The position numbers were made by a program, and so were the translations under genes. A DNA stretch of 64,000 nucleotides from contig NC_134028.1 of the NCBI RefSeq assembly GCF_964204645.1, forward strand, positions 26,284,345-26,348,344, read 5' to 3'. Of this stretch, positions 25,591 to 57,339 are shown one piece after another. The notes under the pieces are model-generated. The model ran no database searches and was not told the origin of the DNA. It was given only the letters and a program-made list of their open reading frames with translations. Every line of letters starts with the position of its first letter. Within the stretch, counting starts at the first letter, position 1. The DNA is from Tubulanus polymorphus. Its lineage: Eukaryota > Animalia > Nemertea.

Positions 25591-26325
25591 TTTATGGACT
25601 GAAAATACAAATTTTAAGTAGTTATAAATCTACGTTGAAAGATGATACTACGCCAGTTAGCAAACACCTACTATGGCACCAAGCAATGGGCAATTACTTC
25701 AGCTAATCAGTTATGACTGGACAATAAGTGATCTCTTGTTATAAGGTGAAATCAAAATGTTGTGTCTTTGAGTATATTTTTTCTTTCAACAATTTTTTCT
25801 TTCAATAATATATCAGTATTTGATACTTTTAATCAGAAAAATAATGGGTTTTTATTATATAGTTCTCGCTCCATGTTTGATTGTGGCTATTCAATCATTT
25901 ATGGGTTCGTTTCGGTAATTAGTGCGTCTACGATCATCAATTTTGTTGAAAATTCATTAAAGAGAGAGATAATACCTTTACAAGATGAAACTGAGATAAA
26001 GTTGTTCAAGAAATGATTTCTCCATTTCTAATTCTAATTTGATTGATACTTACTGCGTGAAACATACAGGCAGGAACGTTTTGAGTTGAGTTAAAAATTT
26101 CAATTATGCCTGGACTGGTTGCCTGTACATATGGGAGAGATCAGGTAACCAGTCTGGAATTGACCGACAACCAGTCTAGCCAACGAAATACCGGGAACCA
26201 GTCCTAAATTGCACGGTCCGAATCCCAGTCCGAATTAGGAACAGGCTCCACAGTGATGCGAAACATAAACAATATGGCGGCTTAATGAAGTAGAGATTAT
26301 TGATATTGCTGCAGCAGCTGTAGAG

Positions 26326-29300
26326 ATGTGTTTACTGGTAGGAGCGTCTGGTGTCGGTAAAACATTACTGTCTAAACGATTACAAGGTAACACCCAATAA
26401 CTAATAAGTAGTCGGTGTTCTTTTTCAAGTTAAAATCTAATCTAAAAAATTCACTTTTTTGTATACACAGGATAGGCCTAAATTAATATTCTAGATTACT
26501 GACCTACGTGAAGTGAGCCTGTTATTCCAGCCTCGTATTCAGATATAGTGTGTACACACTGTATAGCTGCCTGTAGATACTGGTTGACATGAAATGTATA
26601 ACTTAACATGACGGAGCGATGATAACTAACGTAAACGTTAGTATATAGCATCGGATACTGATACTCAAATTTCTCTGAAACAAAAACTCCAGGTTTCGTA
26701 AAAACTGAGTATATTACTGAGTAGGCTCGATTGTTCAAGTAGATATATAAAGTAAATGTCTGTGCATCGATTTGTTCAGGTATCATTTCAACTCACGATT
26801 GCATCATTCCACGATATCTAAAATTTAAAAATTCAAACTCAAATTTCTCTCAAACTAAAACCTGGGGCTTTCTGAAAATCGAGTATAATATTAAGGAAAC
26901 TCTTTTCTTTAAGTTGATGTAAAGCGGATGTCTGTGCATTGATTTGATCATAATAAAAAACGCGTCATTTCAATACACGATTGCATCATGGCGCGATATT
27001 CAGAAATTTAAATTTCAAAATTAAATATCTCTAAAACTAAAACCTGAGGGTTCCTGAAAATTAAGTATATTAATAAGGAAACTCTATTCTTTAAGTTGAT
27101 TCAAGGCAGATGTCTGTGCATTGATTTGATCATAGTAAAAAAATGCGTCATTTCAATACACGATTGCATCATGGCGCGATATTCAGAAATTTAAATTTCA
27201 AAATTAAATTTCTCTCAAACTAAAACCTGAGGGTTCCTGAAAATTAAGTATATTAATAAGCAAACTCTATTCTTAAAGTTGATTTAAGGCAGATGTCTGT
27301 GCATTGATTTGATCATAGTAAAAAAAACGCGTCATTTCAATACACGATTGCATCATGGTGCGATATTCAGAAATTTAAATTTCAAAATCAAATTTCTCTT
27401 AAACTAAAACCTGAGGCTTTCTGAAAAGTAAGTATATTAATAAGCAAACTGTAGTCTTTGAGTTGATGTAAAGCGCATGTCTGTGCATTGATTTGTTCAT
27501 AGTTAGATTGCCTGTTATTGCGACACACGATTGCATCATTGCGCGATATTCAAAATTTAAAAATTCAAACTCAAATTTCTCTAAAACTAAAACCTGGGGT
27601 TTCCTGAAAAAACGATTATATCAATAAGATGACTCTATTCTTCAAGTTGATGTAAATAAGATGTCTTTGCATTGATTGGTTTATAGTAAGAATTGGTGTT
27701 ATTTCAATACTCGAAGCATCATTGCGCGAATATTCAAATGATTCATGAGGATCAAATGAGAGTGTACTGACTGTCTGAGAGTGTAACGCCTGTCTGAGCA
27801 TGTACCGCCTGTCTGAGAATGCACTGACTGTCTGAGAGTGTACTGGAATTGACCGTGTCTTCTTGGCTTTTGGAAAACTTTGATAGTATTTTATAGCTAC
27901 CATCAATTTGTAAGATTTATTGTTAACAGCCAATAGAAAAAAAAAACAAGACTAGCAGTACTCTATAGATAATTTATTCATTTGACGCACGAGCTTTTGC
28001 AACTAATGAATAGTAGCTTCATCAGGCGAATGAGTCTAAAAGTCTATCCAATAGAAAATAAATTCTGAGAAATCTAACACAATTTACTCAGATTTAATGA
28101 AAGTTCATTATTGTGTAAAATATGAATGTGCCGGCAACTAAATTAAATATCAATATTCTTTGTACAAGAATTCATTGTGAGTGGTGAAATGAATATCTGA
28201 AAATGTACAAACTGTTTATATCGAGATAAGAGACTTTTCGTTATAGAATCATATTTGTAGCCTGCATGCGTACCACAATCTATTGTAAATATCATATCGT
28301 GTGTTGCGTACCCTCAACTGCCAGGCTGTTTCTTGTCCACCATCTCTTGAATAAGTATCTGAGTTTGTACATCGAGATTTTCATGTATTCTAGTGAGATT
28401 TAATTGTATCTAGAGAATTTACACATGACATTTAGTCCGTAACTGAACTGAACTGAAGCCAGACTTAACATTACATAAAGTACTGGTTGGGCTGCATCAG
28501 ATACTTACATGGATCCGACTACGACCGCACGTTTTAGTCGTCTTTTTCCTCCATTGATGAGCGATTGTTTTTAATACATGTCGCAAATCACCAGCACCAA
28601 TCACTAATAAATTGATCACATCTAAAAGGGAAACAATAGAGACCTAGCTACGGACACCTTAAACTGCAGTTGCTTCTGGCTTATCTTTGACAGCTCCGAG
28701 AAGGGGGTACCCGTTCGTAAGTACGCATCGTGCAAGATACAATCTTTAAAGTTTGTTGACTCACTTTTTATCAGTTGGTGGAGTTGGAAGTGCAGCAGTG
28801 AAGGCGTGCCCGTGGCAATAATTTACTAGAGATGTTTTTTATTTCTATGAATATGGTACCATGTTTAAGACAGAATTGAAATAAATTCGCTGCGGCAACA
28901 TATAACAACGTGACAAAAATCGGCATTTTTGTACTTCCTCCTCTTCCACAAGTCACAACGGCGAACGCTGATCGTCGTACCTCTGCATCATCGACTTTAC
29001 AGCAAACGCCAATAGGATTTGGTCTAACTGCAGTTTGGGTCACCTATCCACTGGGTGGCGCTAATGTCTATTTATTAATGGATGAGACCTGTTTTTCTGG
29101 GATATTTTGCTTACTTTTTGGGATACATACCTCATTTATGTCTTAACAGAATGCCAAAAGTCGCGGACAACAACTGAATATCCGATATATTTCCAGTTCT
29201 GTCCCAATTAGATGGATTGGCAAAAAGACTCCTTAAGTCCAGTTGAATGAGAGAGAAAATCCTCCATTTTGTGAAATTTCTTGAATTTTTACATTGTTAC

Positions 29301-32300
29301 ATGCCTACAAAATGAAGTTATTTTTCTTGTGGGGTCTCAACAACTAAATCAGGGTGGCGTAGGCATGGTAACGAATTGATTGATTGTATTGAATTCATAC
29401 GTCGAGTAACATGGTACATTTTCTTTGTGAATTTCGGTGTCTCCTCGGTACATAGTCCGTGCGCAATATTAGCCCTCTCCACTCGTTCCGCGATCTTACT
29501 TCTGGGGTCAGCTGACAGATTTTCCTTGATGTATTGCATAATATAACGATGCAGGCGTTCTATTCCACGATCATTTAAATGCAACCCATCCAAACGATAA
29601 AATTCTTGTTTGACAGAGAATTGATCTCCTTTGTTTTTGCGTTTCTGACTCGTTTCGAAAATACGCTGAAATGAGACAACACAATCAAAATGCAGGCTAT
29701 GAAAATATACCATTTTACAGATGTTAGCCGCCTTTTTGTTAGCGTACGGTACTAAACTTTGTCCTCTATTGTTAGATAACTTTTTTCTCTTTTTAAAGGA
29801 TTATTTGTGATGTGTTCTATCATATTTAATTGGTTTGTAGGTGAATTTTGCCATGTAAGGAGCATTCAAACCATGGGAATACGTATCTTGTTTGTTTTCA
29901 GTTATCTAAAATCTACGAGCAATTATAGATGATAAATGATTGCAAAAGTCAAAAATACTCTAGAAACCAGCAAATAAGGAGTAATTTTGAATTCTTCATT
30001 TTCGTAGCAAATTCAAACTTTGATTGACTTTGGAGGAGGAGCTTCTTAGTTATCAACTCACTGACCACAAGCCTGCTGAATTATGTAAACATAACAGCTG
30101 TGTGTTTTTTATCTTGTAAGCTGTTGTTAATTAATTGCCTTCACCGGCAATGGTTTTTACTCGGAGCAAAACTTGTTTACTGGGTAAAAAGGAAATATGA
30201 TAAATTTTTAATTCGTTTCTTATAACTAGATTGATTTACCCTCAAATTTTTAGGAAAATCGGACCTAAAATAAAAACAAGGAAGTTTTTTACCCATGTTC
30301 TTGCCTTTAATCAGAAATAATCCCCAGAATCATGGAAGGTGTCATTCAATTCCATCAGTTACAGATTTTTACTCGTTTTACTCGAATTATTGGTCGAGTA
30401 GTATACAGGGAGTAAAAAACAAGTTTTTTTTGTCTGGCCAGTCCAGGGGCCGTGCTGAGATACAAAAAATAACGACCTTCGAATCCCTACGCATGTGGCA
30501 AAAACTGGCCACGGGTTTTTTTATCATTCTCATGTCGCATTGTTGCGAATTTGAGAAACACTAGAAATGTTTGAATGCTGCCAAAATGTCAAAATCCACC
30601 TACAGGCCAATGAAATATGATAAAACACATCACAAATAATATTTAAAATAGAAATAATTACCAAACAATAGAGGACAAATGAAAGTACCCTAACAAAATG
30701 GTGGCTGGCAACTGTAACATGGTATTAGTTTACGGTATACATTTCATGAATATATATATTTACCTCAGTTTTCATGAAGGAAACCCTTTTGAACCTGGGT
30801 TCGCGCAGAAGCTTCTTCGTTAACCTATTAACTTTCTTCCGCTTCTGATCCTTCACCTTTGAATCATTTCGTGGAAATATCGGCAACAGAAGGATTTTGG
30901 TTGATGGCATCATCAGCGCGAGATAACCTAAAAAAAACTAGTATCAAGAGGAATTTAGTCATTCGTCATTTAGTCATTTGAATTTTCTGTAATTTTCTGC
31001 ATAAACTGTTGAGTAACTAACCTGGTATGCCTTTACTATATCCTTTGGTTGAACATTTTCGTTTAAATCGTTAGTTCCGACCCATACTATGAGAACGTCC
31101 GCGTATTTTATGTCGTCAATTATTTTCTCACCGACGATTCTACGCATTACGTCAATGCCTATTCCTGGCCAAAAATGTGTCTTATGATTTTCCGATTCCG
31201 GGAAAAAACGACCCATGCTATCACTTAAAAGTATCGTTTTCATTTTGAATGTGTGCGCGCTCATGTAAACCGGGTAATAATCTGGTAAGAACTGGTTTGA
31301 AATTGTTGTGCGCCTTAAACTAGGTAGAGCAGTCACTTTTGCTTACGCAACTGATAGTTAAGCAACATAAGATTATATAATATCAATGATTTATAAAAAT
31401 GTTTATACGTCCATGAAGTAGTTTTGTTTAAAGATTCAATGTTACATGTACGTCTGATTGAATAATGAGGATGTAGTGGAAAAATCCCAACGTTTTAGTT
31501 AGCCACTTAATAATTTCAAGATCAGGATAATAATTGTTAGGTTCAAAGAAGTATATTGTTCATTTATTTTGCCGCATAACCAAAGCGTTGAAAATGATGG
31601 AATATAACATTCTATTTCACCTACACATGCTGTTTAATGGGAATGTCTATTTGAGATTAGCTGACACCCTCAGATGAGAAGTGCGGACCGATAAAACACA
31701 GCGAAATGTGAGGAATAGATACAATCTATGCCTAGTATAAAAGCATTTATACTGTATAGTCCTTATGAATATTGATAGTGTACTACTAATTACAAAGAAT
31801 GTCGTGCAGGCGTGAAATTCGTGTTAGTTGATACTTGGTTTTTCGGATTTTATGCCTGTTTGATGGTGATTTCAAAGTCACTTCTGCCAGAAGTTCGATG
31901 TACGATTTCCACATGATGTTAAATGTTCTTTTATCGCTGAAGGTTAAGTTCCATGCTCCTTTACCCTTGTGGCGAAATTTCGTCACGGGTTGGGGGCGGT
32001 CTGTACGCTACGCATGAACAAGTTTTTGGTGCCAAATGAATGGTCGTTTATATGTTTTAGTATCGATTTCATGGTTTCGTAGACTTTTGGACCATTTAAG
32101 TTTGGACGCTCCGCGTGACGTCACCCACTGCGCGCAATGATCAAAACAAACACAAAGACAAACACGATGTGAAGTCTATTCATAATGAGTTGACGTGCGG
32201 CTTTTTCTCCACATCAAAGAGCAGCTACTGCTGTGAGCTGTCAGATAGCTGCTACACAAATGATCCATCACAGATGTGCTGACCCACTGCAGCCCAGCGT

Positions 32301-35300
32301 CCACCAAGAGTGAATAACTACACACACATAACTTGCATCTCCAACCACTCAGTTCTTTAATATTACCAGGGAGGTGGGAGTTCACTCCCACCTCCCTGAT
32401 ATTACACAAGTCAGTTTATAATGCAAATGATTTGGTTGACAAATTCATTATAAATATCAGCGATGATAAATGAAGAAATCTCACACTTCGAATTTAAAAT
32501 TATACGATCAAATTTATTATTACGAAACCACAACGTTTCGGCTGTTAACTAACAGCCATCATCAGGTGGAATGACCAGAAAAACAAGTTACAAAGCATAT
32601 AAACTCACAGGATCTAAAATAGAAGCAGTGTGTCAAAACTAAAGATAAACAGACCAAGCAATAAAACACCAAGGGGTACCGTGGAAACCACAGCAATTCT
32701 AAACAGTTCAGAGTAAAAACAAATTATGTAACTAAGTGAAGTGGACTGAAGAGGGTGGCGATAACAGAGTGACACATAGTGACATTAACCCAAATCTAAT
32801 AAAGAGTTGATGTGTCTGGATAATAATTGGTTATGTGGAGAAAAACCAGTATTTAAATTAGTAGATAAATTGGATTTCGAAAGTTCACATATTAGGGCTG
32901 ATTCCACTATGTGTCTCTTATTAATATCTTTACAAGGATAAATAAGTTTCGAATTCTGAAAGTCAAATTGGTGATTAGTTGTAAAGACATGATTTGCTAT
33001 TCCACTCTCAGGCTTTTGGTTGCGGATATCTATGTTGTGTTCTTTAATACGCTGACTAAGATTACGTCCCGTTTCGCCGATGTACATCATATTACAGTCT
33101 TTACATGATGATTCTTCGTCTGAATTAGATTCAAACTATGTAATATGGATGCATCCGCAAAAGAGAGTGACTGGGTAGAAGATTATCGTAACTTTTTACA
33201 CACTTATAGCTATCTGTTTTCAGAGCCTATTTTGATTTGTTAGTTGATACAAATTACCTGGCTCGCGATAAAGTTTTTCCTATCATTTACTTCGACTAAA
33301 GCATAATATATGTAACCGACCACCCAAATCAAGTCAAGTTGAATATGGGTACAATGTCGAGATGAAAACATATCCATGGTTTCCACACGAGAAAAAAAAA
33401 TAATCAACTCAAATTCAATCATGATAAACCCGTCCTTGTTCCTCGAGTAAACAAAAATGATGCCTTGTTTCTCCGCAGCGGCCGGGTCAATTTTTGTAAA
33501 ATTTGATAAAATTAGTAAACAGTTCATTTCTAGAGCTGCTGGGTTTGTTATGGTAAAATTGATCACGATTTTTAAAAAAAAAGTAATGTATAGGGTAGAT
33601 AGGCGGCCGGCCGGGTCAACTTCTAAGCTCAGCAGAGCGGGGAAACAAGGTATCAATTTTTTTAGGCTTAAGCTAGTAGTAAATATATAAATACCATTTA
33701 GCGAGACAAATGTATGATGACAGAATAACTGCAGTCTAGATTATTTCATTAATTGTTTTGGACACTGATTATGTACCGTGCTGCTTTTCAAATAGGGAAG
33801 TTTCCAGTTACAGGCGCCAGAAAATAGAAATTGTCGCCTTTCAAACGATAATTTTGGTGTCAGAGGGGGGATGGACGACAATAAATCGTGCCAAAGGTTT
33901 TACTTAAAAAAATAAATAAATCTATCCAACAACGGTACCTGTGGGACCACCTCAAAATGACGCCTAACTGGAAACTATTACATCACATGGCAACGGGGTT
34001 ATCTAATATTCAAAATGAATGATGATTCTGTTTCGCGTATTTTTAGAATCACTCATTTTAGAATCACTCTAATCCGTGTAATGTTGATAAATAAAAAAGT
34101 TTCGCAATCGAATATAATGTGATAAAATATGGAAGCAAAACCGGCTACTGACTACACACTGACCGGCTACACAGCCACGGTCAGGTGCAATTTCCAGTAA
34201 AGAAAAAAGCATACACTCACAGTACATTAGCAGGGTTAGCGGTAAAGGCCCCTTATTCTAAGTTAGGTAAAAATCCTCTACCTTTTGAACGGAGTATGAA
34301 ACAATAACTATAAGGCGGATTTAGTCATATTTATTTATTCAATGTATCTATATTTTATTGTACGGTGTACATAAGGATACCATCAACATACCAATTACTT
34401 TATACTACATTCTCAAAGTTATCGCACAGCTCGAACATATCGCAAGTTTGAAACAGGTCACCGCACAGTTAAAATGACACTTGCTTGAATTTAAAATGTT
34501 TAAAATATTAAGTGCATTATTTCAAATTTCTTTTTTTTCGCATCGCTCAGTGAAATGTAACACAAAGTAAAAATAGTCCACCGTTCGACGATGTTCCAGT
34601 TCTAATTGAAAAATGTTACAAATTAAGAGTTCACTTATTCTATGAATTCCAACAACCCCTTATTCGAAGAAATTATCATATGATTTAGGGGATTTTTACC
34701 GAGGGAATGTTTTCTCACTACTCATTAGCAGAAGCTGTTCAGAAAGTATAAAAATGTGATCTTTAGTCAGCGCATCAAAGAACATAAGCCTGAAAGTGAG
34801 GTTGCTAATCCCATTTTATCACCAATTTGACATAAGAACTCGTTATTTATACTTTAAAAAAATGCAGACACATAGTGGAATCGGCCCTATAAGCCTAAAT
34901 ATAAACGGGAGAAATTTAACTTATACAGCATTCACTTTCGGACGTAATCTTAGTCAGCGTATTAAAGAACACAACATAGATATCCGCAACCATACTGGGT
35001 GAAATTTTCCACATAGTAATTATCGGTATCTATCTATACGTATATATCAACTCTTTATTGAATATCCGTTTATTCTACAATGGACGTCATAAACTAGATT
35101 ATACTCCTTGATTCTACTAATATGTGTTTTATCCTGTAATGGACCAATGGACGCTAATACGAAGGGACGTAAAAAAGCGGCGTTAGATCATGACCAGAGC
35201 TGTAGACGGATCATATGGCAACGTTGAGATGGCTTTCCGATGAGATGACAGTATTTTGCCAATTATAGCCCCGCCGAATAGCTCTGAGCTAAGAGCAATC

Positions 35301-38300
35301 AAGCTCATTGCGTTGAGTTCATAATCTTACTTTACTATTTCGATTGAAACTAAAATTAAATTTTCAGTTGCGTCAGATAGCTTCGCCGGGGACAGTAAAA
35401 GAACTGGGTACATGTTACATCACCCATGATTAGTGACGGAGCAAATAAGCAAAACTAGGAAGAAAACAGCGAGAGGTACCTCAGTAACCACAGTCTTAAC
35501 AATCTTTGACTCCATCCAATACGAGTATTAAAGCCCATGATTGGACATTATGTAACCATGGACAAGCCTACAGCAACACCAAGCTGCCAACATCAACCGA
35601 TAATCTTGTTGGTAACGCTATTTTTGTTAAAATTGATATACTAAAAGTGGATTGATTTTTCTTCATCGTGGATATACACTTTAGTATTGCATAACATAAT
35701 TACATAGCGTTGCGTTGTTCCAATTTCCTTTACTTAGAACGTCAAGCGCATGTTGTTCTATAAGTAAAACCTGAGGTTTCTTGAAAATTAATGATGTCGG
35801 TGCAATAATCTGTTGTATTATTTCAATACACAAATGCATCTTTCGGCAATATTCAAAATTTAGAGATTCAACTAAAATTTTCTCTCAAACTAAAACCTGA
35901 AGCTTTTTGAAAAATGGACTTTGTTGAGCCTATCCTCTCTAAAGTGATAAAGAATTGATTTGTTCATAGTTAGAATACATGTTATTTCATAGAGGATAGT
36001 TAGATACACCATCGATACACAATACACACTGTAAGGGCTGACTGTAGGTTTACAGTAGCCTACCAACCACTGGAAGAGTTTCATTTCAGGCGAATGAAAT
36101 TACTCGGAGACTCCCACATACATTTTGGGGCGGCACCTCCTTTAAGTGTATAGTCTATATATATATATATATATATATATACTGGTATTCCATAAACGGT
36201 ACAGATCTTTACTGAAACGCACTCAGTTCAGTAAAATATCAAAGAATTTCGCTGCAAGTTAGTTTGCGTAAAACCTTGTACCCTCGAAGATCGCGATTAT
36301 ATATAAGTATATTATTTTGGAGCTGCAATCATGGTCAGAAAAGCCTACAAGAGGTTACACAATGCAAATCATTGCACTCTAGACGAGGAGACGGTAAAAG
36401 CGGCTATACAAAAATATGGTGTTCCGAATATTTCTCTTGGTGATTTAACTTGGGGTTTGATGTCCATTTTTATATACAAAAAAGACACCCCGAAATTACG
36501 ACGTAAATTGTACGATTACATACGTCGCCATCCAAATCTCATGGTCGATGATACACAACAAAATCAAGAACCGGAACCAATTGATCTACAAAGAAAGGCT
36601 TGGCTACCGGTAAGTTTCATATCTTTATAGTAACCTGTTATTAAGCATAAGTCATGTGTAATTGAGAAAAACTCCAGCTGATTTGCGAAGAAAATATAGA
36701 AGATAAAACCTCCACCCCCACCACCTCCCTTGAAATACATCTATTTGTCGCGCGGTAATAACCGCCTATCTATACTAAACGATTGACACATTACGAGATC
36801 CTGGCGTGCTCTGGAAGGCCGATGGTTGCTTCATACGATTGAATATTGAATTTAAAATTGATTTCATAAAATGTTTCTAACGCAATATGTAGACTAGGCT
36901 GTTAAATCCATGTTTCGCGTTTTATCAAACATTTTTTTAATACAAATATAAATGATATTTCAAAAAATTGTTTGTAAGAAACTAAAAAGCTTCAGGCCCT
37001 GTACAGCAAGAAAAGTATCAGTTGCAACTAAAAATGTCTAGGGGGTTCTTGATGTGACTAAAATGTGTACTTGACGTTCTCATAACAAGATAATTGTTAT
37101 GAGAATGTTTATAGTGTATTTTGTATGTGCATTATTTATTAATGATATAATGGAATTTTGTTCAACTTCGTGGAAATCTCACTAAATTTTTCTTAAATTT
37201 TCAAACAATTCCTATCGTCCGCATGGTCGTTGTAGCGGCTCTGCATCATCGGTCGCAACGTAACATTGCACACAGTCCCTTATTACTTCCCTGGAACCCA
37301 CCCCTACAGAAATTGATGAGAAATGATTAAAAGTTAAACTAAAAAGTAAAAAAAATATACGTATTATCATGCAGCACAGAAATCTATAGTCTAGGAATGA
37401 AGTCTCCCGCAACAATTTGTAGTGATCATGAAAATAACACTGACATCCTGTCGCCAGAACTAGAATAGCTAAAAAAGTATATAAAATTGCGTCAGTCGTG
37501 TAAAGAATTTCAAAGGACACAGTCCAACGTTATAGAAAGTAAAATAAAATAGCGAAATATCGGTAAAGAAAGTTTTAAGTACTTTAAAATTCTAGATCCG
37601 CTCCGATAATCGATTATCCCTCCGTCTGTGTTTATGTTGTGGCTATACAAACTAATACTTGCAAGGAGAGGCATCATGTTTATTACTCAAGATGAAACTT
37701 AAATTTTAAGTGTTATCTTTAATGTTCAGGACATTTTTGATTGTTGTCCACTGATATTTTAGGGCTAACCGGAATAGCCGTTGCACCAGCAGTTCACATA
37801 GATACCTGGTGCAAAAATAAACGATATCTCCATATATCTTTAGAACCACCTACTGGTAACCGCAAGTACTGGTAGGCCTGTAGGTGATCATAGCAAGGTG
37901 TGGGCAATAAATTAGCAGAAGCCGATGACAAGTAGTTAATTAAGCCTTTGCGCAGCATTCGTAGTCAATGCACATGCGTTATTACTCCAAAAGTGATGAC
38001 AGCACAATGCGCTCTTGTGCTGCGCTGAAAATAAATAATCCCCTCTCCAAATCACCACTGATTTTAAATCCCCTCTCTGATGCTTGAAGAAAGCTAGTTA
38101 TTACCACTGTCCATGGTTATTCACCCGTAAATTATATGATGTTTGGTATAAAACTCAACTTCGCGTATTTTGCTGTTGTTTTCGCCTTTGATCAACCTGC
38201 ACCAGTAATTTATTGATTATTTCATTTTCTCAGTTTAAGGCAAAAAAATGATACCCTGTTTCCCATTCTCCGACCGAGTCCCATAAAGTACGACAAAAAT

Positions 38301-44300: not shown

Positions 44301-47300
44301 AAATCAAACCACAGATCCAGTGGTATATCTCAAAGATGACATTACTGATAAAAAGTATATCTTTATACCAATCAATAGATCTAATCATCATTGGGTATGC
44401 GTTATCATCAATACCGAAGCAAGGCATTTGATATATCTAGATCCTACCAATAGAAGTGGCCCTACACTGCATGGACAACAGGCAATAAAGGTGATAAAGG
44501 ATGTTTTTCAACGGAAAATGGGAGAAACCTTCATGGAAAACTGGACAGAGCTATACGACCCACCAAGTAAAACTCTGCAAATTGACTTAAGCAACTGTGG
44601 TGTATACATTTGTGCATATTTCGAATCAATGTTGATATCATCAAAATTGTCATTCAATCTCAGGGAAAACTGGACAGCATTAAAGTATCGGAAGAAGATG
44701 CATGCTATTCTGATGAAAGCCAAGTCTAATGCAGTTACCTATTAAAAAGTCTAATGCAAAGTATCCACAAGGGTCAACAGTTTGTATGTTGGTTTGTTGA
44801 GGTTCTGAAATATCACTTTCCTATCAGGGTCGAGTCATCGGTCCACGCGATGCCAGTACCCACTAGGATCAATAGTTTGTATATGTCGGGTTTTTTTAAA
44901 GTTCTGAAATATCAATTTTCCCTATGAGGGTCGAGTCATCGGTCCACGCGATGCCAGCACCCACTAGGATCAATAGTTTGTATATGTCGGGTTTTTTTAA
45001 AGTTCTGAAATATCAATTTTCCCTATGAGGGTCGAGTCATCGGTCCACGCGATGCCAGTACCCACTAGGATCAATAGTTTGTATATGTCGGGTTTTTTTA
45101 AAGTTCTGAAATATCAATTTTCCCTATGAGGGTCGAGTCATCGGTCCACGCGATGCCAGTACCCACTAGGGTCAATAGTTTGTATATGTCGGTTTGTTGA
45201 GGTTCTGAAATATCAATTTTCCCTATGAGGGTCGAGTCATCGGTCCACGCGATGCCAGTACCCACTAGGATCAATAGTTTGTATATGTCGGGTTTTTTTA
45301 AAGTTCTGAAATATCAATTTTCCCTATCAGGGTCGAGTCATCGGTCCACGCGATGCCAGTACCCACTAGGATCAATAGTTTGTATATGTCGGGTTTTTTA
45401 AAGTTCTGAAATATCAATTTTCCCTATGAGGGTCGAGTCATCGGTCCACGCGATGCCAGTATCCACTAGGGTCAATAGTTTGTATATGTCGGGTTTTTTT
45501 AAAGTTCTGAAATATCAATTTTCCCTATGAGGGTCGAGTGATCGGTCCACGCGATGCCAGTACCCACTAGGGTCAATAGTTTGTATATGTCGGTTTGTTG
45601 AGGTTCTGAAATATCAATTTTCCCTATGAGGGTCGAGTCATCGGTCCACGCGATGCCAGTATCCACTAGGGTCAATAGTTTGTATATGTCGGTTTGTTGA
45701 GGTTCTGAAATATCAATTTTCCCTATGAGGGTCGAGTCATCGGTCCACGCGATGCCAGTATCCACTAGGGTCAATAGTTTGTATATGTCGGGTTTTTTAA
45801 AGTTCTGAAATATCAATTTTCCCTATCAGGGTCGAGTCATCGGTCCACGCGATGCCAGTACCCACTAGGGTCATTGTATATGTCGGTTTATTGAGGTTCT
45901 CAAATATCAATTTTCCCTATGAGGGTCGAGTCATCGGTCCACGCGATGCCAGTACCTACTAGGGTCAATAGTTTGTATATGTCGGGTTTTTTAAAGTTCT
46001 GAAATATCAATTTTCCCTATCAGGGTCGAGTCATCGGTCCACGCGATGCCAGTACCCACTAGGGTCATTGTATATGTCGGTTTATTGAGGTTCTCAAATA
46101 TCAATTTTCCCTATGAGGGTCGAGTCATCGGTCCACGCGATGCCAGTACCTACTAGGGTCAATAGTTTGTATATGTCGGTTTATTGAGGTTCTGAAATAT
46201 CACTTTTCCCTGTCAGGGTCGAGTCATCGGTCCACGCGATGCCAGTACCCACTAGGATCAATAGTTTGTATATGTCGGGTTTTTTAAAGTTCTGAAATAT
46301 CACTTTTCCCTGTCAGGGTCGAGTCATCGGTCCACGCGATGCCAGTACCCACTAGGATCAATAGTTTGTATATGTCGGGTTTTTTTAAAGTTCTGAAATA
46401 TCAATTTTCCCTATGAGGGTCGAGTCATCGGTCCACGCGATGCCAGTACCCACTAGGATCAATAGTTTGTATATGTCGGGTTTTTTTAAAGTTCTGAAAT
46501 ATCAATTTTCCCTATGAGGGTCGAGTCATCGGTCTACGCGATGCCAGTACCCACTAGGATCAATAGTTTGTATATGTCGGGTTTTTTTAAAGTTCTGAAA
46601 TATCAATTTTCCCTATGAGGGTCGAGTCATCGGTCCACGCGATGCCAGTACCCACTAGGATCAATAGTTTGTATATGTCGGGTTTTTTTAAAGTTCTGAA
46701 ATATCAATTTTCCCTATGAGGGTCGAGTCATCGGTCCACGCGATGCCAGTACCTACTAGGGTCAATAGTTTGTATATGTCGGTTTATTGAGGTTCTGAAA
46801 TATCACTTTTCCCTATCAGGGTCGAGTCATCGGTCCACGCGATGCCAGTACCCACTAGGGTCAATAGTTTGTATATGTCGGGTTTTTTTAAAGTTCTGAA
46901 ATATCAATTTTCCCTATGAGGGTCGAGTCATCGGTCCACGCGATGCCAGCACCCACTAGGATCAATAGTTTGTATATGTCGGGTTTTTTTAAAGTTCTGA
47001 AATATCAATTTTCCCTATGAGGGTCGAGTCATCGGTCCACGCGATGCCAGTATCCACTAGGGTCAATAGTTTGTATATGTCGGTTTGTTGAGGTTCTGAA
47101 ATATCACTTTTCCCTATGAGGGTCGAGTCATCGGTCCACGCGATGCCAGTACCCACTAGGATCAATAGTTTGTATATGTCGGGTTTTTTTAAAGTTCTGA
47201 AATATCAATTTTCCCTATGAGGGTCGAGTCATCGGTCCACGCGATGCCAGTACCCACTAGGATCAATAGTTTGTATATGTCGGGTTTTTTTAAAGTTCTG

Positions 47301-50300
47301 AAATATCAATTTTCCCTATGAGGGTCGAGTCATCGGTCCACGCGATGCCAGTACCCACTAGGATCAATAGTTTGTATATGTCGGGTTTTTTAAAGTTCTG
47401 AAATATCACTTTTCCCTATGAGGGTCGAGTCATCGGTCCACGCGATGCCAGTATCCACTAGGGTCAATAGTTTGTATTTGTCGGTTTATTGAGGTTCTGA
47501 AATATCAATTTTCCCTATGAGGGTCGAGTCATCGGTCCACGCGATGCCAGTACCCACTAGGGTCAATAGTTTGTATATGTCGGTTTGTTGAGGTTCTGAA
47601 ATATCAATTTTCCCTATGAGGGTCGAGTCATCGGTCCACGCGATGCCAGTACCCACTAGGATCAATAGTTTGTATATGTCGGGTTTTTTAAAGTTCTGAA
47701 ATATCACTTTTCCCTATGAGGGTCGAGTCATCGGTCCACGCGATGCCAGTATCCACTAGGGTCAATAGTTTGTATATGTCGGGTTTTTTTAAAGTTCTGA
47801 AATATCAATTTTCCCTATCAGGGTCGAGTCATCGGTCCACGCGATGCCAGTATTTACTAGGGTCAATAGTTTGTATTTGTCGGTTTATTGAGGTTCTGAA
47901 ATATCAATTTTCCCTATGAGGGTCGAGTGATCGGTCCACGCGATGCCAGTACCCACTAGGGTCAATAGTTTGTATATGTCGGTTTGTTGAGGTTCTGAAA
48001 TATCAATTTTCCCTATGAGGGTCGAGTCATCGGTCCACGCGATGCCAGTATCCACTAGGGTCAATAGTTTGTATATGTCGGGTTTTTTAAAGTTCTGAAA
48101 TATCAATTTTCCCTATGAGGGTCGAGTCATCGGTCCACGCGATGCCAGTATCCACTAGGGTCAATAGTTTGTATTTGTCGGTTTATTGAGGTTCTGAAAT
48201 ATCAATTTTCCCTATGAGGGTCGAGTCATCGGTCCACGCGATGCCAGTACCCAATAGGGTCATTGTATATGTCGGTTTGTTGAGGTTCTGAAATTTCAAT
48301 TTTCCCTATCAGGGTCGAGTCATCGGTCCACGCGATGCCAGTACCCAATAGGGTCAATAGTTTGTATATGTCGGGTTTTTTAAAGTTCTGAAATATCAAT
48401 TTTCCCTATCAGGGTCGAGTCATCGGTCCACGCGATGCCAGTACCCACTGGGGCCAATACTTTGTATGTAATACGTACATTTGTTTTTTAAAGGTATAGA
48501 TTTTCAGCTCAGAAGATTATTCCATGAGATGGTTTATGGCAAGAAAAGATGGTTTCAAGAAGATAATTCCATGGCAAAGTCTATCCCCGTATCATAGGCC
48601 CTTATAAGGGCCACTCATATGTCCAGAAAGAGCAGTTTGTGCAGCGCCTCCTCGCTTTGCTTCAAATTTTTACATTTAACTTCATATAAGTAGCCAACGA
48701 AAGGAGGTATAAACCGTGAGAAATTTTAATGAAACGTCATTTTCATTAATTATGTTTTACGTGTTCGTGTTCGTTTTGAATATCGCTCCATGGTGCAAAT
48801 GTTTATTGCAATACCACGTAAAAACCAATGCACAGACTTCTGCCTAACATCAACTTATAGATATTAAAAAAATTCAGATAAAAGAAATTCTTTTTGTCTT
48901 AAGTCAACTTAAAGAATAGAGTTTCCTGAATATTATACTTGATTTTCAGAAAGCCTCAGGTTTTAGTTTAAGAGTAATTTGATTTTGAATTTTAACTTTT
49001 TAAATATCGCGCAATGATGTAATCGTGTATTGAAATGACGCTTTTTTTACTATGATCGAATCAATGCACAGACATCTGCCTTAAATCAACTTAAAGAATA
49101 GAGTTTCCTGAATATTATACTGGATTTTCAGAAAGCCTCAGGTTTTAGTTTTAGAGAAACATGATTTTGAATTTCAACTTTTTAAATATCGCGCGATGAT
49201 GCAATCGTGTATTGAAATGACGCGTTTTTTTACTATGATCAAATCAATGCACAGACATCTGCCTTAAATCATCTTAAAGAATAGAGTTTGCTTATTAATA
49301 TACTTAATTTTCAGGAACCCTCAGGTTTTAGTTTGAGAGAAATTTAATTTTGAATTTTTACTTTTTAAATATCGTGCCATGATGTTATCGTGTATTGAAA
49401 TGACGCGTTTTTTACTATGATCGAATCAATGCACAGACATCTGCCTTAAATCAACTTAAAGAATAGAGTTTCCTTATTAATATACTTGATTTTCGGAAAG
49501 CCTCAGGTTTTAGTTTTAGAGAAATTTAATTTTGAATTTTTACTTTTTAAATATCGTGCCATGATGTAATCGTGTATTGAAATGACGCGTTTTTTACTAT
49601 GATCGAATCAATGCACAGACATCTGCCTTAAATCAACTTAAAGAATAGAGTTTCCTTATTAATATACTTGATTTTCGGAAAGCCTCAGGTTTTAGTTTTA
49701 GAGAAATTTGATTTTGAATTTTAAATTTCTGAATATCGCGCCATGATGCAATCGTGTATTGAAATGACGCGTTTTTTTACTATGATCAAATCAATGCACA
49801 GACATCTGCCTTAAATCAACTTAAAGAATAGAGTTTCCTTATTAATATACTTGATTTTCGGAAAGCCTCAGGTTTTAGTTTTAGAGAAATTTGATTTTGA
49901 AATTTAAATTTCTGAATATCGCGCCATGATGCAATCGTGTATTGAAATGACGCGTTTTTTTACTATCATCGAATCAATGCACAGACATCTGCCTTGAATC
50001 AACTTAAAGAATAGAGTTTCCTGAATATTATACTGGATTTTCAGAAAGCCTCAGGTTTTAGTTTTAGAGAAACATGATTTTGAATTTTAACTTTTTAAAT
50101 ATCGCGCCATGATGCAATCGTGTATTGAAATGACGCGTTTTTTTACTATGATCAAATCAATGCACAGACATCTGCCTTAAATCATCTTAAAGAATAGAGT
50201 TTCCTGAATATTATACTGGATTTTCAGAAAGCCTCAGGTTTTAGTTTTAGAGAAACATGATTTTGAATTTTAACTTTTTAAATATCGCGCAATGATGCAA

Positions 50301-53300
50301 TCGTGTATTGAAATGACGCGTTTTTTTACTATGATCAAATCAATGCACAGACATCTGCCTTAAATCATCTTAAAGAATAGAGTTTGCTTATTAATATACT
50401 TACTTTTCAGGAACCCTCAGGTTTTAGTTTGAGAGAAATTTAATTTTAAAATTTAAATTTCTGAATATCGCGCCATGATGCAATCGTGTATTGAAATGAC
50501 GCGTTTTTTTACTATGATCGAATCAATGCACAGACATCTGCCTTAAATCAACTTAAAGAATAGAGTTTCCTGAATATTATACTCGATTTTCAGAAAGCCT
50601 CAGGTTTTAGTTTGAGAGAAATTTGATTTTGAAATTTAAATTTCTGAATATCGCGCCATGATGCAATCGTGTATTGAAATGACGCGTTTTTTTACTATAA
50701 TCAAATCAATGCACAGACTTCTGCCTTGAATCAACTTAAAGAATAGAGTTTGCTTATTAATATACTTAATTTTCAGGAACCCTCAGGTTTTAGTTTTAGA
50801 GAAATTTAATTTTGAAATTTAAATTTCTGAATATCGCGCCATGATGCAATCGTGTATTGAAATGACGCGTTTTTTTACTATGATCAAATCAATGCACAGA
50901 CATCTGCCTTGAATCAACTTAAAGAATAGAGTTTCCTGAATATTATACTCGATTTTCAGAAAGCCTCAGGTTTTAGTTTTAGAGAAATTTGATTTTGAAA
51001 TTTAAATTTCTGAATATCGCGCCATGATGCAATCGTGTATTGAAATGACGCGTTTTTTTACTATAATCAAATCAATGCACAGACTTCTGCCTTGAATCAA
51101 CTTAAAGAATAGAGTTTGCTTATTAATATACTCGATTTTCAGAAAGCCTCAGGTTTTAGTTTTAGAGAAATTTAATTTTGAAATTTAAATTTCTGAATAT
51201 CGCGCCATGATGCAATCGTGTATTGAAATGACGCGTTTTTTTACTATGATCAAATCAATGCACAGACATCTGCCTTGAATCAACTTAAAGAATAGAGTTT
51301 CCTGAATATTATACTGGATTTTCAGAAAGCCTCAGGTTTTAGTTTTAGAGAAACATGATTTTCAATTTTAACTTTTTAAATATCGCGCAATGATGCAATC
51401 GTGTATTGAAATGACGCGTTTTTTTACTATGATCAAATCAATGCACAGACATCTGCCTTAAATCATCTTAAAGAATAGAGTTTCCTGAATATTATACTGG
51501 ATTTTCAGAAAGCCTCGGGTTTTAGTTTAAGAGGAATTTGATTTTGAATTTTTACTTTTTAAATATCGTGCCATGATGTAATCGTGTATTGAAATGACGC
51601 GTTTTTTACTATGATCGAATCAATGCACAGACATCTGCCTTAAATCAACTTAAAGAATAGTTTCCTGAATATTATACTGGATTTTCAGAAAGCCTCAGGT
51701 TTTAGTTTAAGAGGAATTTGATTTTTAATTTTAACTTTTTAAATATCGCGCAATGATGCAATCGCGTATTGAAATGACGCGTTTTTTTTTACTATGATCA
51801 AATCAATGCACAGACATCTGCCTTGAATCAACTTAAAGAATAGAGTTTGCTTATTAATATACTTGATTTTCAGACAGCCTCAGGTTTTAGTTTTAGAGAA
51901 ATTTGATTTTGAAATTTAAATTTCTGAATATCGCGCCATGATGCAATCGTGTATTGAAATGACGCATTTTTTTACTATGATCAAATCAATGCACAGACAT
52001 CTGCCTTAAATCAACTTAAAGAATAGAGTTTTCTTATTAATATACTTGATTTTCAGACAGCCTCAGGTTTTAGTTTTAGAGAAATTTGATTTTGAAATTT
52101 AAATTTCTGAATATCGCGCCATGATGCAATCGTGTATTGAAATGACGCGTTTTTTTACTATGATCAAATCAATGCACAGACATCTGCCTTAAATCAACTT
52201 AAAGAATAGAGTTTCCTGAATATTATACTGGATTTTCAGAAAGCCTCATGTTTTAGTTTAAGAGGAATTTGATTTTGAATTTTAACTTTTTAAATATCGC
52301 GCAATGATGCAATCGTGTATTGAAATGACGCGTTTTTTTACTATGATCAAATCAATGCACAGACATCTGCCTTAAATCAACTTAAAGGATAGAGTTTCCT
52401 GAATATTATACTGGATTTTCAGAAAGCCTCAGGTTTTAGTTTAAGAGGAATTTGATTTTGAATTTTAACTTTTTAAATATCGCGCAATGATGCAATCGTG
52501 TATTGAAATGACGCGTTTTTTTTACTATGATCAAATCAATGCACAGACATCTGCCTTAAATAAACTTAAAGAATAGTTTCCTGAATATTATACTGGATTT
52601 TCAGAAAGCCTCAGGTTTTAGTTTTAGAGAAATTTGATTTTGAATTTTAATTTTTAAATACTGCGCCTTGATGCAGTCGTGTATTGAAATATTGCATTTT
52701 TTACTATGATCAAATCATTGCACAGACATCTGCCTTAAAGAATAGAGTTTCCTTTATAATATTCTCGATTTTCAGAAAGTCTCAGGTTTTAGATTAATGG
52801 AATTTTATTTTTTGAAATTTAAATTTCTGAATATCGCGCAATGATGCAATCGTGTATTGAAATGACGCGTTTTTTTTACTATGAAAAAATCAATGCACAG
52901 ACATCTGCCTTGAATCAACTTAAAGACTAGAGTTAATATACTTAATTATCCTCAGGTTTGAGTTTAAGAGAAATTTGATTTTTAATTTTAATTTTTGAAT
53001 ATCGTGCCACGATGCTATCGTCTATTGAAATGACGCATTTTTTACTATAATCAAACCAATGCACAGACACCTGCTTTACATCAACTTTACATCAGAGTGT
53101 GCTTATTAATATACTTAATTTTAAGGAAGTCTCAGGTTTCAGAGTTTCAGAGAAATCTCATTATGAATTTTAACTTTTTAAATATCACCCAATGATGCAA
53201 TCGTGTATTGAAATGACGCGTTTTTTACTATGATCAAATCAATGCACAGACATCTGCCTTAAATCAACTTAAAGAATAGAGTTTCCTTAATAATATACTT

Positions 53301-55158
53301 AATTTTCAGGAACCCTGAGGTTTTAGTTTTAGAGAAATTTGATTTTGAATTTTAATGTTAACATGTTGAGCCATGATGCAATCGTGCGTTGAAATATTGC
53401 GTATTTTTTACTATGAACAAATGAAGACATCTGCTTTAAATCAACTCGAAGAATAGAGAAATTAATTTTCAGGTAGCATTGTTTTACTTTTATAGACATA
53501 GTTGAATTTTAACAGGCATAATTGATGTAAAATACATTTCGATGAAAATCTATGAAATTTACGAAAATCACTACACATTTTAATTATATAAAACAATTAT
53601 TGATCACTCTTCTGCCCCGGTGACTTTATTGAATGATCGTCGTTTCGTCCGGTCAAAGTGTTAAGTTATACATTTCATGTCAACCAGTATCTACAGGCAG
53701 CTATACAGTGTGTACACACTATATCTGAATACGAGGCTGGAATAACAGGCTCACTTCACGATAGTAGATTACTGATGATGTCAAATTCATTCTTCAATTT
53801 CATTTCAGCATTTGCGGCAAAAGGTTCTGCCAATCTCGGTGATGCTCCATCTACTATTCCTACTGTAAGTTACTATTCACTACTCCAATATCGGAGCGTC
53901 TGCGCTTTAGGTCTCCCTCTAATCTGACCATGGCATAACACTATTCTTTGATAACACTAGACTAGTGCCACACAGTGGAAAGATGACCTCAACTGCAGTT
54001 AGTCCGAAAATTTTTATCGGAGATTTACTTCTAAAACTGACTTTAAACCGCACGACCTCCTCTCATGCAAAGTTGAAATATACGTAAGTCTTAAACTCTT
54101 ATCGCAATATTTCAGGTCGGCACAAATTTGGTGACGTTATCGACAGGCAGAAAACAGGATGTGACAGTTCGTGAACTGGGCGGATGTATGGCTCCGATCT
54201 GGCACAAATACTTCGAGAATACGAATAGACTTATCGTAAGTTGTCGAGTGGTGACACGTAGCCTTAATGGAATAGAATGAAGCTCTATATTCAGCGGTAT
54301 AACTTGATAATAGGCCTAACTGATTTTTATTCTAACACATCATCAACTATTATTAATTACCTACCAGACTATATTTCCACTTAGGTGACAGTCGCCTTAG
54401 TGGAAATATATAAAGTGACTGCAGCTGAGTACCATAATTATATTTCAACTATTAATTACCTACCAGACCCGACCTGAAGTTGTGGAAAAGGTTTGGAACT
54501 GAATATCACCGCGGTTTAATTTCAGTTTGTAATTGACGTTTCTAATCGAATGCAAGTGTCCACTTCATGTATTATGTTACTGACAATTTTGAAAAATGGA
54601 AATCTGCAGAATACAGTGTTTTTACTTGTACTCAATAAAGTGTAAGTATCTGATTTCATCCGCTGAGTCTACAGTTGATCCTCTTTCCTGCGTTTACCCA
54701 GCGGTGCGGCGTATTCACTTGTCACAACCAGTCTAGAAAATCTGTTATTCATTGCTTGGACACGTCGGGGCACTGATCAAAACACAAGATTGCTGATGGT
54801 GCCTTGTGGGCTTTAGAGTGCGTTCACATTCGTTTGTACCATTATTTCCATGAGTTAGTGTAGTACAGTTACAGTTCTACTGATTTGAGATTATGAATGA
54901 TAAAGTATTGTCGTTGTTGAATAGTGAAAGCCACAATGGCTGTAAACGCAAACAGCCACAACACCCGATTGTGATGTTGATTTGATATTGCTATTTTTCA
55001 GTGATTCTCCGGGCTGTATGAACAGAATTGAATTGAACACATTAATGAAACTCGACGAGATGATGAAATATGCAAAACAACACATCACAGTATTAGAAGT
55101 GAGCGCCAAAGAAGCATCTGGACTCGGAGAGGTTTTAAAATGGTTACAGGATACTTGA
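26326..55158 (+). CDS. ARL16: ADP-ribosylation factor-like GTPase 16, 5 coding exons, intron 1 expanded to 27.4 kb
   Basis: Exons 26326-26386 (MCLLVGASGVGKTLLSKRLQ), 53809-53864 (AFAAKGSANLGDAPSTIPT), 54116-54235 (VGTNL...VRELGGCMAPIW), 54526-54641 (FVIDVS...LVLNKV), 55002-55158 (...LEVSAKEASGLGEVLKWLQDT*). All introns are GT-AG with consistent phases, and the RELGGCM motif is typical of ARL16. Confidence 0.93.
26507..26608 (+). repeat. Left terminal inverted repeat (102 bp)
   Basis: Exact reverse complement of 53659-53760. The ORF track shows the same peptide LSYTFHVNQYLQAAIQCVHTISEYEAGITGSLH on opposite strands at both ends. Confidence 0.95.
26650..27740 (+). repeat. Left subterminal tandem array, ~183-bp unit, ~6 copies
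   Basis: The motif tctgtgcattgatttg recurs at ~26931, 27113, 27296 and 27480, with more diverged copies at ~26759 and 27664. It is the reverse complement of the right-arm unit. Confidence 0.9.
29318..31264 (-). CDS. SGNH/GDSL-type hydrolase (esterase/lipase), 3 coding exons, transposon passenger gene
   Basis: Exons 31264 (or 31243)-31022, 30937-30764 and 29665-29318 splice in phase 0 with GT-AG borders. The product has block I LLSDSMGR, block II WPGIG, block III VWVGTND, ILLLPIFPR and block V DGLH. Confidence 0.8.
32500..33110 (-). mobile_element. 5'-truncated Penelope-like retroelement fragment (GIY-YIG endonuclease end plus 3' region), nested in the large transposon; boundaries approximate
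   Basis: ORF 32785-33090 YIGETGRNLSQRIKEH...SGIANHV...NHQFDF...RHIVES matches the PLE GIY-YIG pattern, and the hammerhead motif lies downstream on the same strand. Confidence 0.8.
32528..32569 (-). ncRNA. Minimal type I hammerhead ribozyme motif (Penelope-associated)
   Basis: Minus strand reads CCAC-CUGAUGA-U-GGCUGUU-AGUU-AACAGCC-GAAACGUU-GUGG: core boxes CUGAUGA and GAAA, a 7-bp stem II, a 4-bp stem I (CCAC/GUGG) and a palindromic ACGU stem III. Confidence 0.75.
36331..44745 (+). CDS. Multidomain transposon protein: PHD finger + USP (C19) deubiquitinase + Mutator/NOF-like DDE transposase + Ulp1 (C48) protease; predicted 2 exons, ~1851 aa
   Basis: Exon 36331-36609 (donor GTAAGT) joins in phase 0 to the acceptor atttgtag before 39469, in frame with the 1747-aa ORF. 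PHD YCYC..MVECDYC..WFH..C..CSSC (~40432-40579); USP Cys box GIVNIKNTCW and His box VIVHRG..SGHYV..FDDS (~40610-41545); DDE-like YYDATGS, ISADRS, GCCH, TQGLIEEFW (~42560-43570); Ulp1 WLTDEVI, HHWV, YLDP, Q..SNCGVYIC (~44197-44640). The first exon is less certain than the long ORF. Confidence 0.82.
44760..48470. repeat. Tandem array of a 99-101-bp unit, ~37 copies, immediately downstream of the transposase stop codon
   Basis: The motif gggtcgagtcatcggtccacgcgatgccag recurs at 44827, 44928, 45029 and onward. Copies are near-identical, with two interspersed variants. Confidence 0.96.
48780..53470 (-). repeat. Right subterminal tandem array, ~183-bp unit, ~25 copies, inverted relative to the left array
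   Basis: gcacagacatctgcc recurs at 49066, 49249, 49431, 49613, 49796 and onward; the edge copies are more diverged. Confidence 0.95.
53659..53760 (-). repeat. Right terminal inverted repeat (102 bp)
   Basis: Exact reverse complement of 26507-26608. Confidence 0.95.
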
Positions 55159-57072: not shown

Positions 57073-57339
57073 GTAGTTCCTGAACCAGCCGAACGGTAGT
57101 TCCTGAACCAGCCGAGCGGTAGTTCCTGAACCAGCCGAGCGGTAGTTCCTGAACCAGCCGAGCGGTAGTTCCTGAACCCGCCGAGCGGTAGTTCCTGAAC
57201 CAGCCGAGCGGTAGCTCCTGAACCAGCCGAGCGGTAGTTCCTGAACCAGCCGAGCGGTAGTTCCTGAACCAGCCGAGCGGTAGCTCCTGAACCAGCCGAG
57301 CGGTAGTTCCTGAACCAGCCGAGCGGTAGTTCCTGAACC
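57073..57339. repeat. Minisatellite, 21-bp unit (ggtagttcctgaaccagccgagc-like), ~12 copies
   Basis: Directly visible tandem repeat between the ARL16 and CNOT6 3' ends. Confidence 0.9.

Follow-up and report, generated by a model that had tools for sequence, protein, structure and literature searches.

A probable Rehavkus-group foldback transposon of 27 kb, present or absent in an intron of a small GTPase gene of the nemertean Tubulanus polymorphus

Introduction

Intron 1 of an ARL16-like small GTPase gene in the palaeonemertean Tubulanus polymorphus holds some 27 kb of DNA that ends in inverted repeats and carries genes of its own, which raises the questions of what this insert is, whether it is mobile, and how its genes came to lie together. 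The locus was examined in a 64,000-nucleotide stretch of contig NC_134028.1 (positions 26,284,345 to 26,348,344 of the forward strand, assembly GCF_964204645.1), hereafter the window, in which positions are counted from the first letter. A previous sequence-only reading had proposed a giant, apparently young, Foldback/Mutator-like transposon at 26492..53775, of a family that it did not recognise. We consider it likely that the insert is an apparently intact foldback transposon of the Rehavkus group, present in this intron on some chromosomes and absent from it on others, and predicted to move by cut-and-paste by means of its own transposase. The observations behind this reading are the ends of the element, a 9-bp target-site duplication (TSD), an empty allele, other ends elsewhere, an open reading frame (ORF) and the conservation of a D-D-H-W-E set of residues; the ends, the empty site and the copy number were drawn from public sequencing runs (X1, X2 and X4), two more runs, X5 and X6, having given no matches.

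Results

Ends, empty allele, and other copies

The element spans 26502-53765 (27,264 bp), its ends being set by the read and contig ends of other copies. Its termini, ACCTACGTG and ACTATCGTG, begin with five imperfectly matching bases (ACCTA on the left, ACTAT on the right), inside which 26507-26608 agrees with the reverse complement of 53659-53760 at 102/102 bases; the identity of these terminal inverted repeats (TIRs) and the imperfection of their outermost bases had both been noted in the sequence-only reading. A 14-bp palindrome lies at 26547 within the left TIR. Left-type ends, in all three runs with matches, leave the window at 53760, run on as TAGGT and then enter flanking sequence, which fixes the left terminus at 26502, the base at which two contigs of X2 start; right-type ends halt at 53765, and the flanks beyond are mixed. 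The nine bases AGATTACTG adjoin the element on both sides (26493-26501 and 53766-53774), and a chance 9-mer match arose in 39 of 2,000,000 draws of random pairs from the window. An 11-bp duplication, TAGATTACTGA, had also been put forward, and the plus strand of the window holds just two copies of it (26492-26502 and 53765-53775); it was rejected because bases 26502 and 53765 belong to the element in other copies, so that the 9-bp alternative is retained and the giant element stands with its span trimmed accordingly.

The insertion site is crossed by one X1 contig (3,991 nt, depth 33.4) from which the element is absent and in which the TSD is single, letters 1-660 lying on 25845-26503 and letters 649-1219 on 53765-54340. 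Either the element was never present on this allele or it was removed from it by precise excision; excision of Muta1 was precise in approximately 90% of events if a TSD was present (PMC5225508). The contig matches the left side to 26503 (C), one base beyond expectation, and the right flank has T at 53776; the extra base is most simply a single-nucleotide polymorphism of the flank, and a footprint is also possible. Removal of the element and one TSD copy from the window leaves a 149-nt intron 1 and a complete gene, as had been noted, here resolved as five exons for a 169-residue Arf-family GTPase. Pfam Arf matches fall in order on exons 3-5 of this gene, weakly and below the curated cut-off, and exon 1 holds the P-loop; the tentative name ARL16 follows a likeness to its human namesake.

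The empty site and other TIR-bounded ends with different flanks had been named beforehand as the observations that would bear on mobility, and both were found. Behind 53765, 54 reads of X4 and five contigs of X1 leave the sequence of the window, and their low flank agreement (0.47 and 0.53, respectively) places these right ends at different sites. X1 contains 0.75 of the words sampled from 36200-44760, though its contig for the site is empty. In X4, the mean depth of single-copy flank is 6.2 (22 of 30 bins, hand-picked to exclude repeats) and that of the right subterminal region approximately 37 (five hand-picked bins), or about six times single copy, and this suggests approximately six right ends as the better estimate of the dispersed complete-type copies.

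Within the TIR, the left end in the window has T at 26564 and A at 26606, where the X4 reads have C in 311/345 and G in 274/274, respectively; the two bases are common to both TIRs of the window copy and absent from most left ends in the reads. The left TIR of this copy may have been converted by the right one, and with the two TIRs possibly homogenised, their identity is a poor clock. The empty allele is thus a better ground than TIR identity for the claim that the element is young.

The transposase gene

The ORF previously described as an uninterrupted 5.3 kb (39469-44745) is open for 1,758 codons, and together with a predicted first exon, for which no look-alike was found in protein searches, it would encode a protein of 1,851 residues. 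This predicted protein combines a PHD finger, a USP deubiquitinase-like domain, a transposase core and an Ulp1 SUMO-protease-like domain (Table 1). Residues of the catalytic motifs are present in both putative protease domains; a structure predicted for the USP domain from one sequence was too poor for use (predicted local distance difference test, pLDDT, 39).

The core of 631 residues had no match in Pfam, the Pfam MULE (Mutator-like element) entry included, and its profile retrieved no transposase among the PDB sequences, where it matched USPs and, weakly, a WRKY domain (E 0.09). An exhaustive search with a limit of E 0.001 returned 778 relatives, of which the best was 36% identical; the named ones belong to a sea cucumber, a sea anemone, a hydrozoan and a rotifer. 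The key residues were conserved in a 103-row alignment built from 102 of the 150 relatives listed out of the 778, counted over the rows that held a residue at the position: D1033 in 100/102, D1110 in 102/103, H1159 in 98/99, W1325 in 72/80 and E1361 in 74/77. The corresponding motifs in the element are DATGS, ADRS, CCHLMK, IPLWS and IEEFWKDVK; D[AS]TG was found in 129 of the 150 listed relatives and the canonical MULE motif DGT[FYH] in one. The predicted structure of the core was confident (pLDDT 89.6, predicted template-modelling score 0.85), and the model supports a fold like that of DDE transposases, with an RNase H-like domain and a helical insertion, in keeping with the Foldback/Mutator-like class first assigned to the element. 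Its top Foldseek matches were the P element, Hermes and ISCth4 transposases (E 7e-4 to 7e-3), with RAG1 lower.

Among the 32 relatives of at least 1,089 residues that were scanned for domains, UCH was present in 13, C48 in 13, both in nine and PHD in nine; USP stood downstream of the core in these long relatives, and the order PHD-USP-core recurred in two proteins of Apostichopus japonicus, a species that also supplied the nearest row in a quick tree. Domain labels on that tree (78 of 103 rows kept, no named Rehavkus sequence among them) were not clustered beyond shuffles (173/500). One relative (P0036) bears a C-terminal Macro domain in place of the proteases.

Arms and internal structure

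Both arms are built of 183-bp repeats, of which Tandem Repeats Finder counts 5.2 in the left arm (26783-27736) and 25.1 in the right (48898-53458), and the two arrays are inverted relative to each other, which bears out the inverted tandem-repeat arms reported earlier. A 101-bp minisatellite (37.3 copies) is interposed between the stop codon of the ORF and the right arm, and tandem repeats amount to approximately 9.3 kb of the 27.3 kb. The minisatellite, the PHD, USP and Ulp1 domains and the arm remnant described below all go beyond the sequence-only reading.

Degenerate arm units, oriented as in the left arm, occupy 35757-35997 with a score of 137, where none of 29 control windows exceeded 44, and are likely the former inner edge of the left arm; an 18-kb core plus an 8-kb segment is, given this remnant, the simplest history of the element. 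The outer left arm ends at unit position 38 and the remnant begins at 66, roughly in register, and the arm sequence at the edges of the 8-kb segment is degenerate (80% and 58% identical to an outer unit). At these edges we found no direct or inverted repeat of at least seven bases, no TSD and no Helitron-like 3′ end, and near the remnant no inner degenerate TIR (best score 37, equal to the control maximum). The segment also contains a relic of a GIY-YIG endonuclease, presumably from a Penelope-like retroelement, of which 53 identical bases recur inverted at 34940-34992 (within the region 34818-34992), and an inverted pair around most of intron 2 of the gene described next, possibly an old nested element.

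The SGNH hydrolase gene

The second spliced gene that had been recognised between the arms, at 31264-29318 on the minus strand, encodes in three exons an SGNH/GDSL hydrolase. Its blocks LSDSMG (S(D)S), PGIG, GTND and DGLH occur in P0155 and in the exons of the window; the protein resembles GDSL clusters and matches PAF acetylhydrolase IB at E 1.3e-6. Exon 1 retrieves a RefSeq protein of T. polymorphus that is 100% identical over 57% of the query, and the cluster to which this belongs comprises seven RefSeq proteins of that species at five named loci, which lie on sequences of four different lengths. This cluster confirms both splice joins and differs from each exon in the window by at most one residue over the shared part. 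At one locus the protein has the same end as that of the window, and this locus may be the window copy itself; the other four are LOC141906112, LOC141899095, LOC141900347 and LOC141915115. The gene likely travels with the element and is most likely a passenger, or else a germline-expressed helper of the kind proposed for texim; the texim SGNH genes are Helitron-borne in fish, for which a helper role in the germline has been suggested (PMC4021074).

Surroundings

Outside the element, an uninterrupted frame of 734 codons for CstF-77/Suppressor-of-forked (578-2782, plus strand; Pfam Suf E 1e-206) is GC-rich with a high CpG ratio, and an uninterrupted RRP36 frame (24724-25629, minus strand; Pfam E 1.5e-48) stands head to head with the ARL16-like gene at a distance of approximately 700 bases. 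Very high-copy interspersed repeats occupy 23200-23560 and 24120-24205 (X4 depth up to approximately 2,000, compared with 6), and further minisatellites lie at 21686-22555, 13723-14067, 57072-57339 and 60141-60546, with units of 30, 39, 23 and 13 bp, respectively. A short repeat in intron 2 of the ARL16-like gene (53948-54009, approximately 10-fold in X4) recurs inverted and 80% alike at 29018-29078, inside the element.

Table 1 Features of the element and its host gene, in positions of the window
Feature	Position	Strand	Evidence
ARL16-like small GTPase gene (exons 26326-26386, 53809-53864, 54116-54235, 54526-54641, 55002-55158)	26326..55158	+	169-residue open product
Left TSD copy, AGATTACTG	26493..26501	+	Single copy in empty-site contig
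Whole foldback transposon, Rehavkus-type (MULE-related)	26502..53765	.	TIR, TSD, ends of other copies, empty-site contig
Left TIR (imperfect ACCTA, then 102 bp identical to right end)	26502..26608	+	Sequence comparison
Left foldback arm, ~5 to 6 units of 183-bp repeat	26661..27738	+	Repeat search
SGNH/GDSL hydrolase gene (exons 31264-31022, 30937-30764, 29665-29318)	29318..31264	-	Splice joins match RefSeq proteins
Inverted pair, 165 nt, 81% alike	29707..30725	.	Sequence comparison
GIY-YIG endonuclease relic	32785..33135	-	Pfam GIY-YIG E 2.3e-4
Degenerate run of 183-bp arm unit	35757..35997	+	Score against control windows
Predicted first transposase exon, 93 residues, ATG to GTAAGT donor	36331..36609	+	In-frame splice to 39469
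Main transposase exon, 1,758 codons	39469..44745	+	Open frame
PHD finger, residues 323-370	40435..40578	+	Pfam E 7.8e-6, above curated cut-off; PDB PHD matches
USP (peptidase C19) deubiquitinase-like domain, residues 381-690 (C390, H649, D665/D666)	40609..41538	+	Pfam UCH E 1.7e-20; motifs
Transposase core (D1033, D1110, H1159, W1325, E1361)	41836..43728	+	103-row alignment, structure model, fold matches
Ulp1 (peptidase C48) SUMO-protease-like domain, residues 1577-1740 (H1641, D1658, Q1704, C1710)	44197..44688	+	Pfam E 5.1e-13; motifs
101-bp minisatellite, 37 copies	44760..48467	+	Tandem Repeats Finder
Right foldback arm, 25 units of 183-bp repeat	48898..53458	-	Repeat search
Right TIR (outer bases ACTAT on own strand)	53659..53765	-	Sequence comparison and read ends
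Right TSD copy	53766..53774	+	Match to left copy

Discussion

Weighing the evidence

Several observations count against a mobile Rehavkus-group element that carries both genes. No listed read or contig bridges the junctions between filled flank and TIR, so that the filled allele is known from the window, and the other copies are known here from their ends and depth, none as a full-length 27 kb. The left subterminal depth of X4 is 267, approximately 43 times single copy against approximately six times for right ends, an excess that our model leaves unexplained and that X1 shows similarly (1,407 versus 33-40). A shared flank follows 236 of the left-end junction reads of X4, with an agreement of 0.92 over 30 letters, and a 13-base piece of it is absent from the window; one left end seems to be amplified, in a tandem cluster or within another element. 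On the side of the enzyme, the fold matches of the core are weak, with template-modelling scores of only approximately 0.2, and membership in Rehavkus was judged by eye and from motif counts. C/DxxH is a signature of the MULE superfamily, and the first position in the element is G (codon GGA), where 92 of 99 rows have C and five have G. A loss of this cysteine specific to the present copy was considered and rejected, as the glycine is common to near relatives (the nearest, P0002, and P0016). No annotated protein was found for the transposase gene in word-seeded searches (4,153 and 4,023 candidates); given that the exhaustive search found 778 relatives, these blanks reflect sensitivity and are silent on expression. 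As for the SGNH gene, the proteins of four of the five loci have C-terminal peptides that are absent from the window, and the placement of the other loci inside copies of the element is drawn solely from matching counts, five loci and approximately six right ends.

These points can be assembled into other explanations. An ordinary 18-kb Rehavkus element may have received the 8-kb SGNH segment into the left arm of this copy as a separate passenger (e.g., Helitron- or retroelement-borne), the other four loci then being unrelated to the element. We hold this to be somewhat unlikely: it would suit the break of the left arm roughly in register at unit positions 38 and 66, the differing C-termini, the other relics inside the segment and the precedent of SGNH genes on fish Helitrons (PMC4021074), but the edges of the segment show neither repeats of at least seven bases nor a Helitron-like 3′ end, the arm sequence there is already degenerate, suggesting an old insertion, while the SGNH copies are nearly identical, and the five loci agree with the approximately six right ends.

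The surplus of left ends over right ends in X4, approximately 7 to 1, together with an inner arm remnant that would mark an older left end, would instead be expected if an abundant non-autonomous left-end family and an autonomous right end had moved together once, making 27 kb a one-off and not the size of a family; foldback-bounded composite units have been described (PMC6431247), as in the FB-bounded Ising transposable element of Drosophila. This arrangement appears improbable to us, for the left excess appears to stem mostly from a single amplified junction rather than from numerous free ends, the search around the remnant gave no inner TIR above the control maximum, and the SGNH gene is multicopy across several sequences. 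An assembly error that wrongly joined a repeat-rich element to the ARL16-like locus would explain why the filled junctions have no listed read support and why the only bridging contig is empty, yet it is hardly credible: a mis-join is not expected to create a 9-bp TSD exactly at termini that other copies define independently, the flanks merge into one TSD copy in the empty allele, and X4 was sequenced to a depth of only approximately six-fold.

Proposed mechanism and implications

For the Rehavkus-group transposon that we favour, cut-and-paste movement would follow, by analogy to Muta1, from the ends, the TSD and the enzyme. In Muta1, the residues of the DDE triad, a W residue and the subterminal repeats are all important (PMC5499845), and on this model the transposase would bind the TIRs and the 183-bp arm units (PMC5499845, PMC5225508), cut both ends with a hairpin forming on the flank side, and insert the element with a 9-bp stagger; the many arm units might help to pair ends that lie 27 kb apart. 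The PHD finger may recognise the tails of histones, while USP and Ulp1 may strip ubiquitin and SUMO from chromatin, repair factors or the transposase itself and so counter silencing or degradation, a role comparable to that proposed for the proteases of Ginger and MULE elements (PMC2836005). With respect to history, we envisage that the 18-kb core (35757-53765) gained the 8-kb segment with its intron-containing SGNH gene inside the left arm, after which the gene would have been copied with the element to approximately five to seven places.

A stronger proposition, which in our judgement could equally well prove right or wrong, is that a currently mobile nemertean Rehavkus family of approximately 27 kb moves as a unit with two complete genes, one joining the transposase to a histone reader and two intact isopeptidases that would shield it from ubiquitin and SUMO control, and the other an expressed, intron-containing esterase. 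If this is true, the element would be longer than any tabulated Rehavkus element, a carrier of whole-gene cargo among animal cut-and-paste elements, and a candidate source of a large-cargo transposase. Transposition efficiency drops above approximately 6 kb of cargo and capture of whole genes is rare (PMC6431247), and an element of 27 kb that occurs in nature and carries a complete spliced gene as passenger would form an instructive exception. The window copy brings Rehavkus a further phylum, together with a transposase gene that is open and a site at which the insert is present or absent, so that activity is accessible to polymerase chain reaction and an excision assay, and the 778 relatives of the core extend the group far beyond the six tabulated elements. 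The joint recurrence of USP and Ulp1 among these sequences in two domain orders points to selection, possibly for the removal of both ubiquitin and SUMO during transposition or silencing.

Comparison with known systems

Rehavkus elements are characterised in print by a TSD of 9 bp, TIRs of 26-400 bp, a single ORF, a PHD finger and, ahead of the 3′ TIR, a minisatellite; very few are described, all of them from insects or one annelid and recorded solely in Repbase (PMC6446971). Repbase has merged them into MuDR (PMC4455052), and those of Tribolium have tandem repeats in long inverted termini (bioRxiv 10.1101/2024.12.02.626372). The element of T. polymorphus shares with these accounts its 9-bp TSD, with termini fixed by other copies; TIRs of 102 identical and five imperfect outer bases, inside the published range; subterminal 183-bp tandem repeats in inverted termini, five on the left and 25 on the right; a 101-bp minisatellite of 37 copies ahead of the 3′ TIR; a PHD finger in its transposase; and the motifs of its DDE core. 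For the last of these, six published cores (Rehavkus-1_HR, -1_TC, -3_TC, -2_Nvi, -1_DY and 1_AP) were compared by eye from the supplement of PMC13359780, and D[AS]TGS was present in 6/6, with xxHF/L and LW[ST] in most. It departs from them in its length (27.3 kb, against 4,934-18,501 bp for the six elements in the supplement table), its nemertean host, the second spliced gene between its arms, where the descriptive entry of the table lists one ORF, the USP and Ulp1 domains, which that table does not list, and GxxH in place of C/DxxH. The element is very probably a Rehavkus-group MULE and very probably works like one.

A coding middle occurs in a minority of the ends of Drosophila FB-NOF. Both FB-NOF and Tetris resemble the present element in having inverted tandem-repeat arms around a middle region, with a TSD of 8-10 bp in Tetris (PMC4079207); they differ from it in that Tetris is described there without an ORF and in that the proteases and the esterase gene do not feature in the available descriptions of either. 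Canonical MULEs (MuDR, Muta1), so far as their published accounts go, have in common with it a DDE triad with conserved H and W, a TSD of 8-9 bp and subterminal repeats, and the predicted core carries the features of the superfamily, namely, an RNase H-like DDE domain, a helical insertion and the conserved H and W; its first motif, however, is DATG and not DGT[FYH], the core has no Pfam MULE match, and arthropod MULEs are reported at 1.4-10 kb (PMC13359780). The accessory domains have precedents, Ulp1 on MULEs of hydra, lancelet and plants (PMC2836005) and C19 on a Trichomonas transposase in print. Helitrons have captured the same kinds of accessory genes, UCH and Ulp1 (PMC11417382) or SGNH/texim (PMC4021074), but they are rolling-circle elements without TIRs or TSDs, whereas the element here has TIRs, a 9-bp TSD and a DDE enzyme.

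In the literature that was searched, we found no account of this element's family, and none of a Rehavkus transposase that combines USP with Ulp1 or of a MULE that carries an SGNH gene. Such accounts may exist in Repbase Reports, in Dfam, in the two FASTA files that supplement PMC6446971 or in the supplements of the bioRxiv preprint. The initial impression of an unrecognised family is to be qualified: the described group Rehavkus fits, while the family, its size and its cargo were not met with in print. The element is a variant of a known system whose mechanism is not new; what is new is the combination of its size, its phylum, an intact copy that is present or absent at one site and, as we infer, a whole spliced passenger gene.

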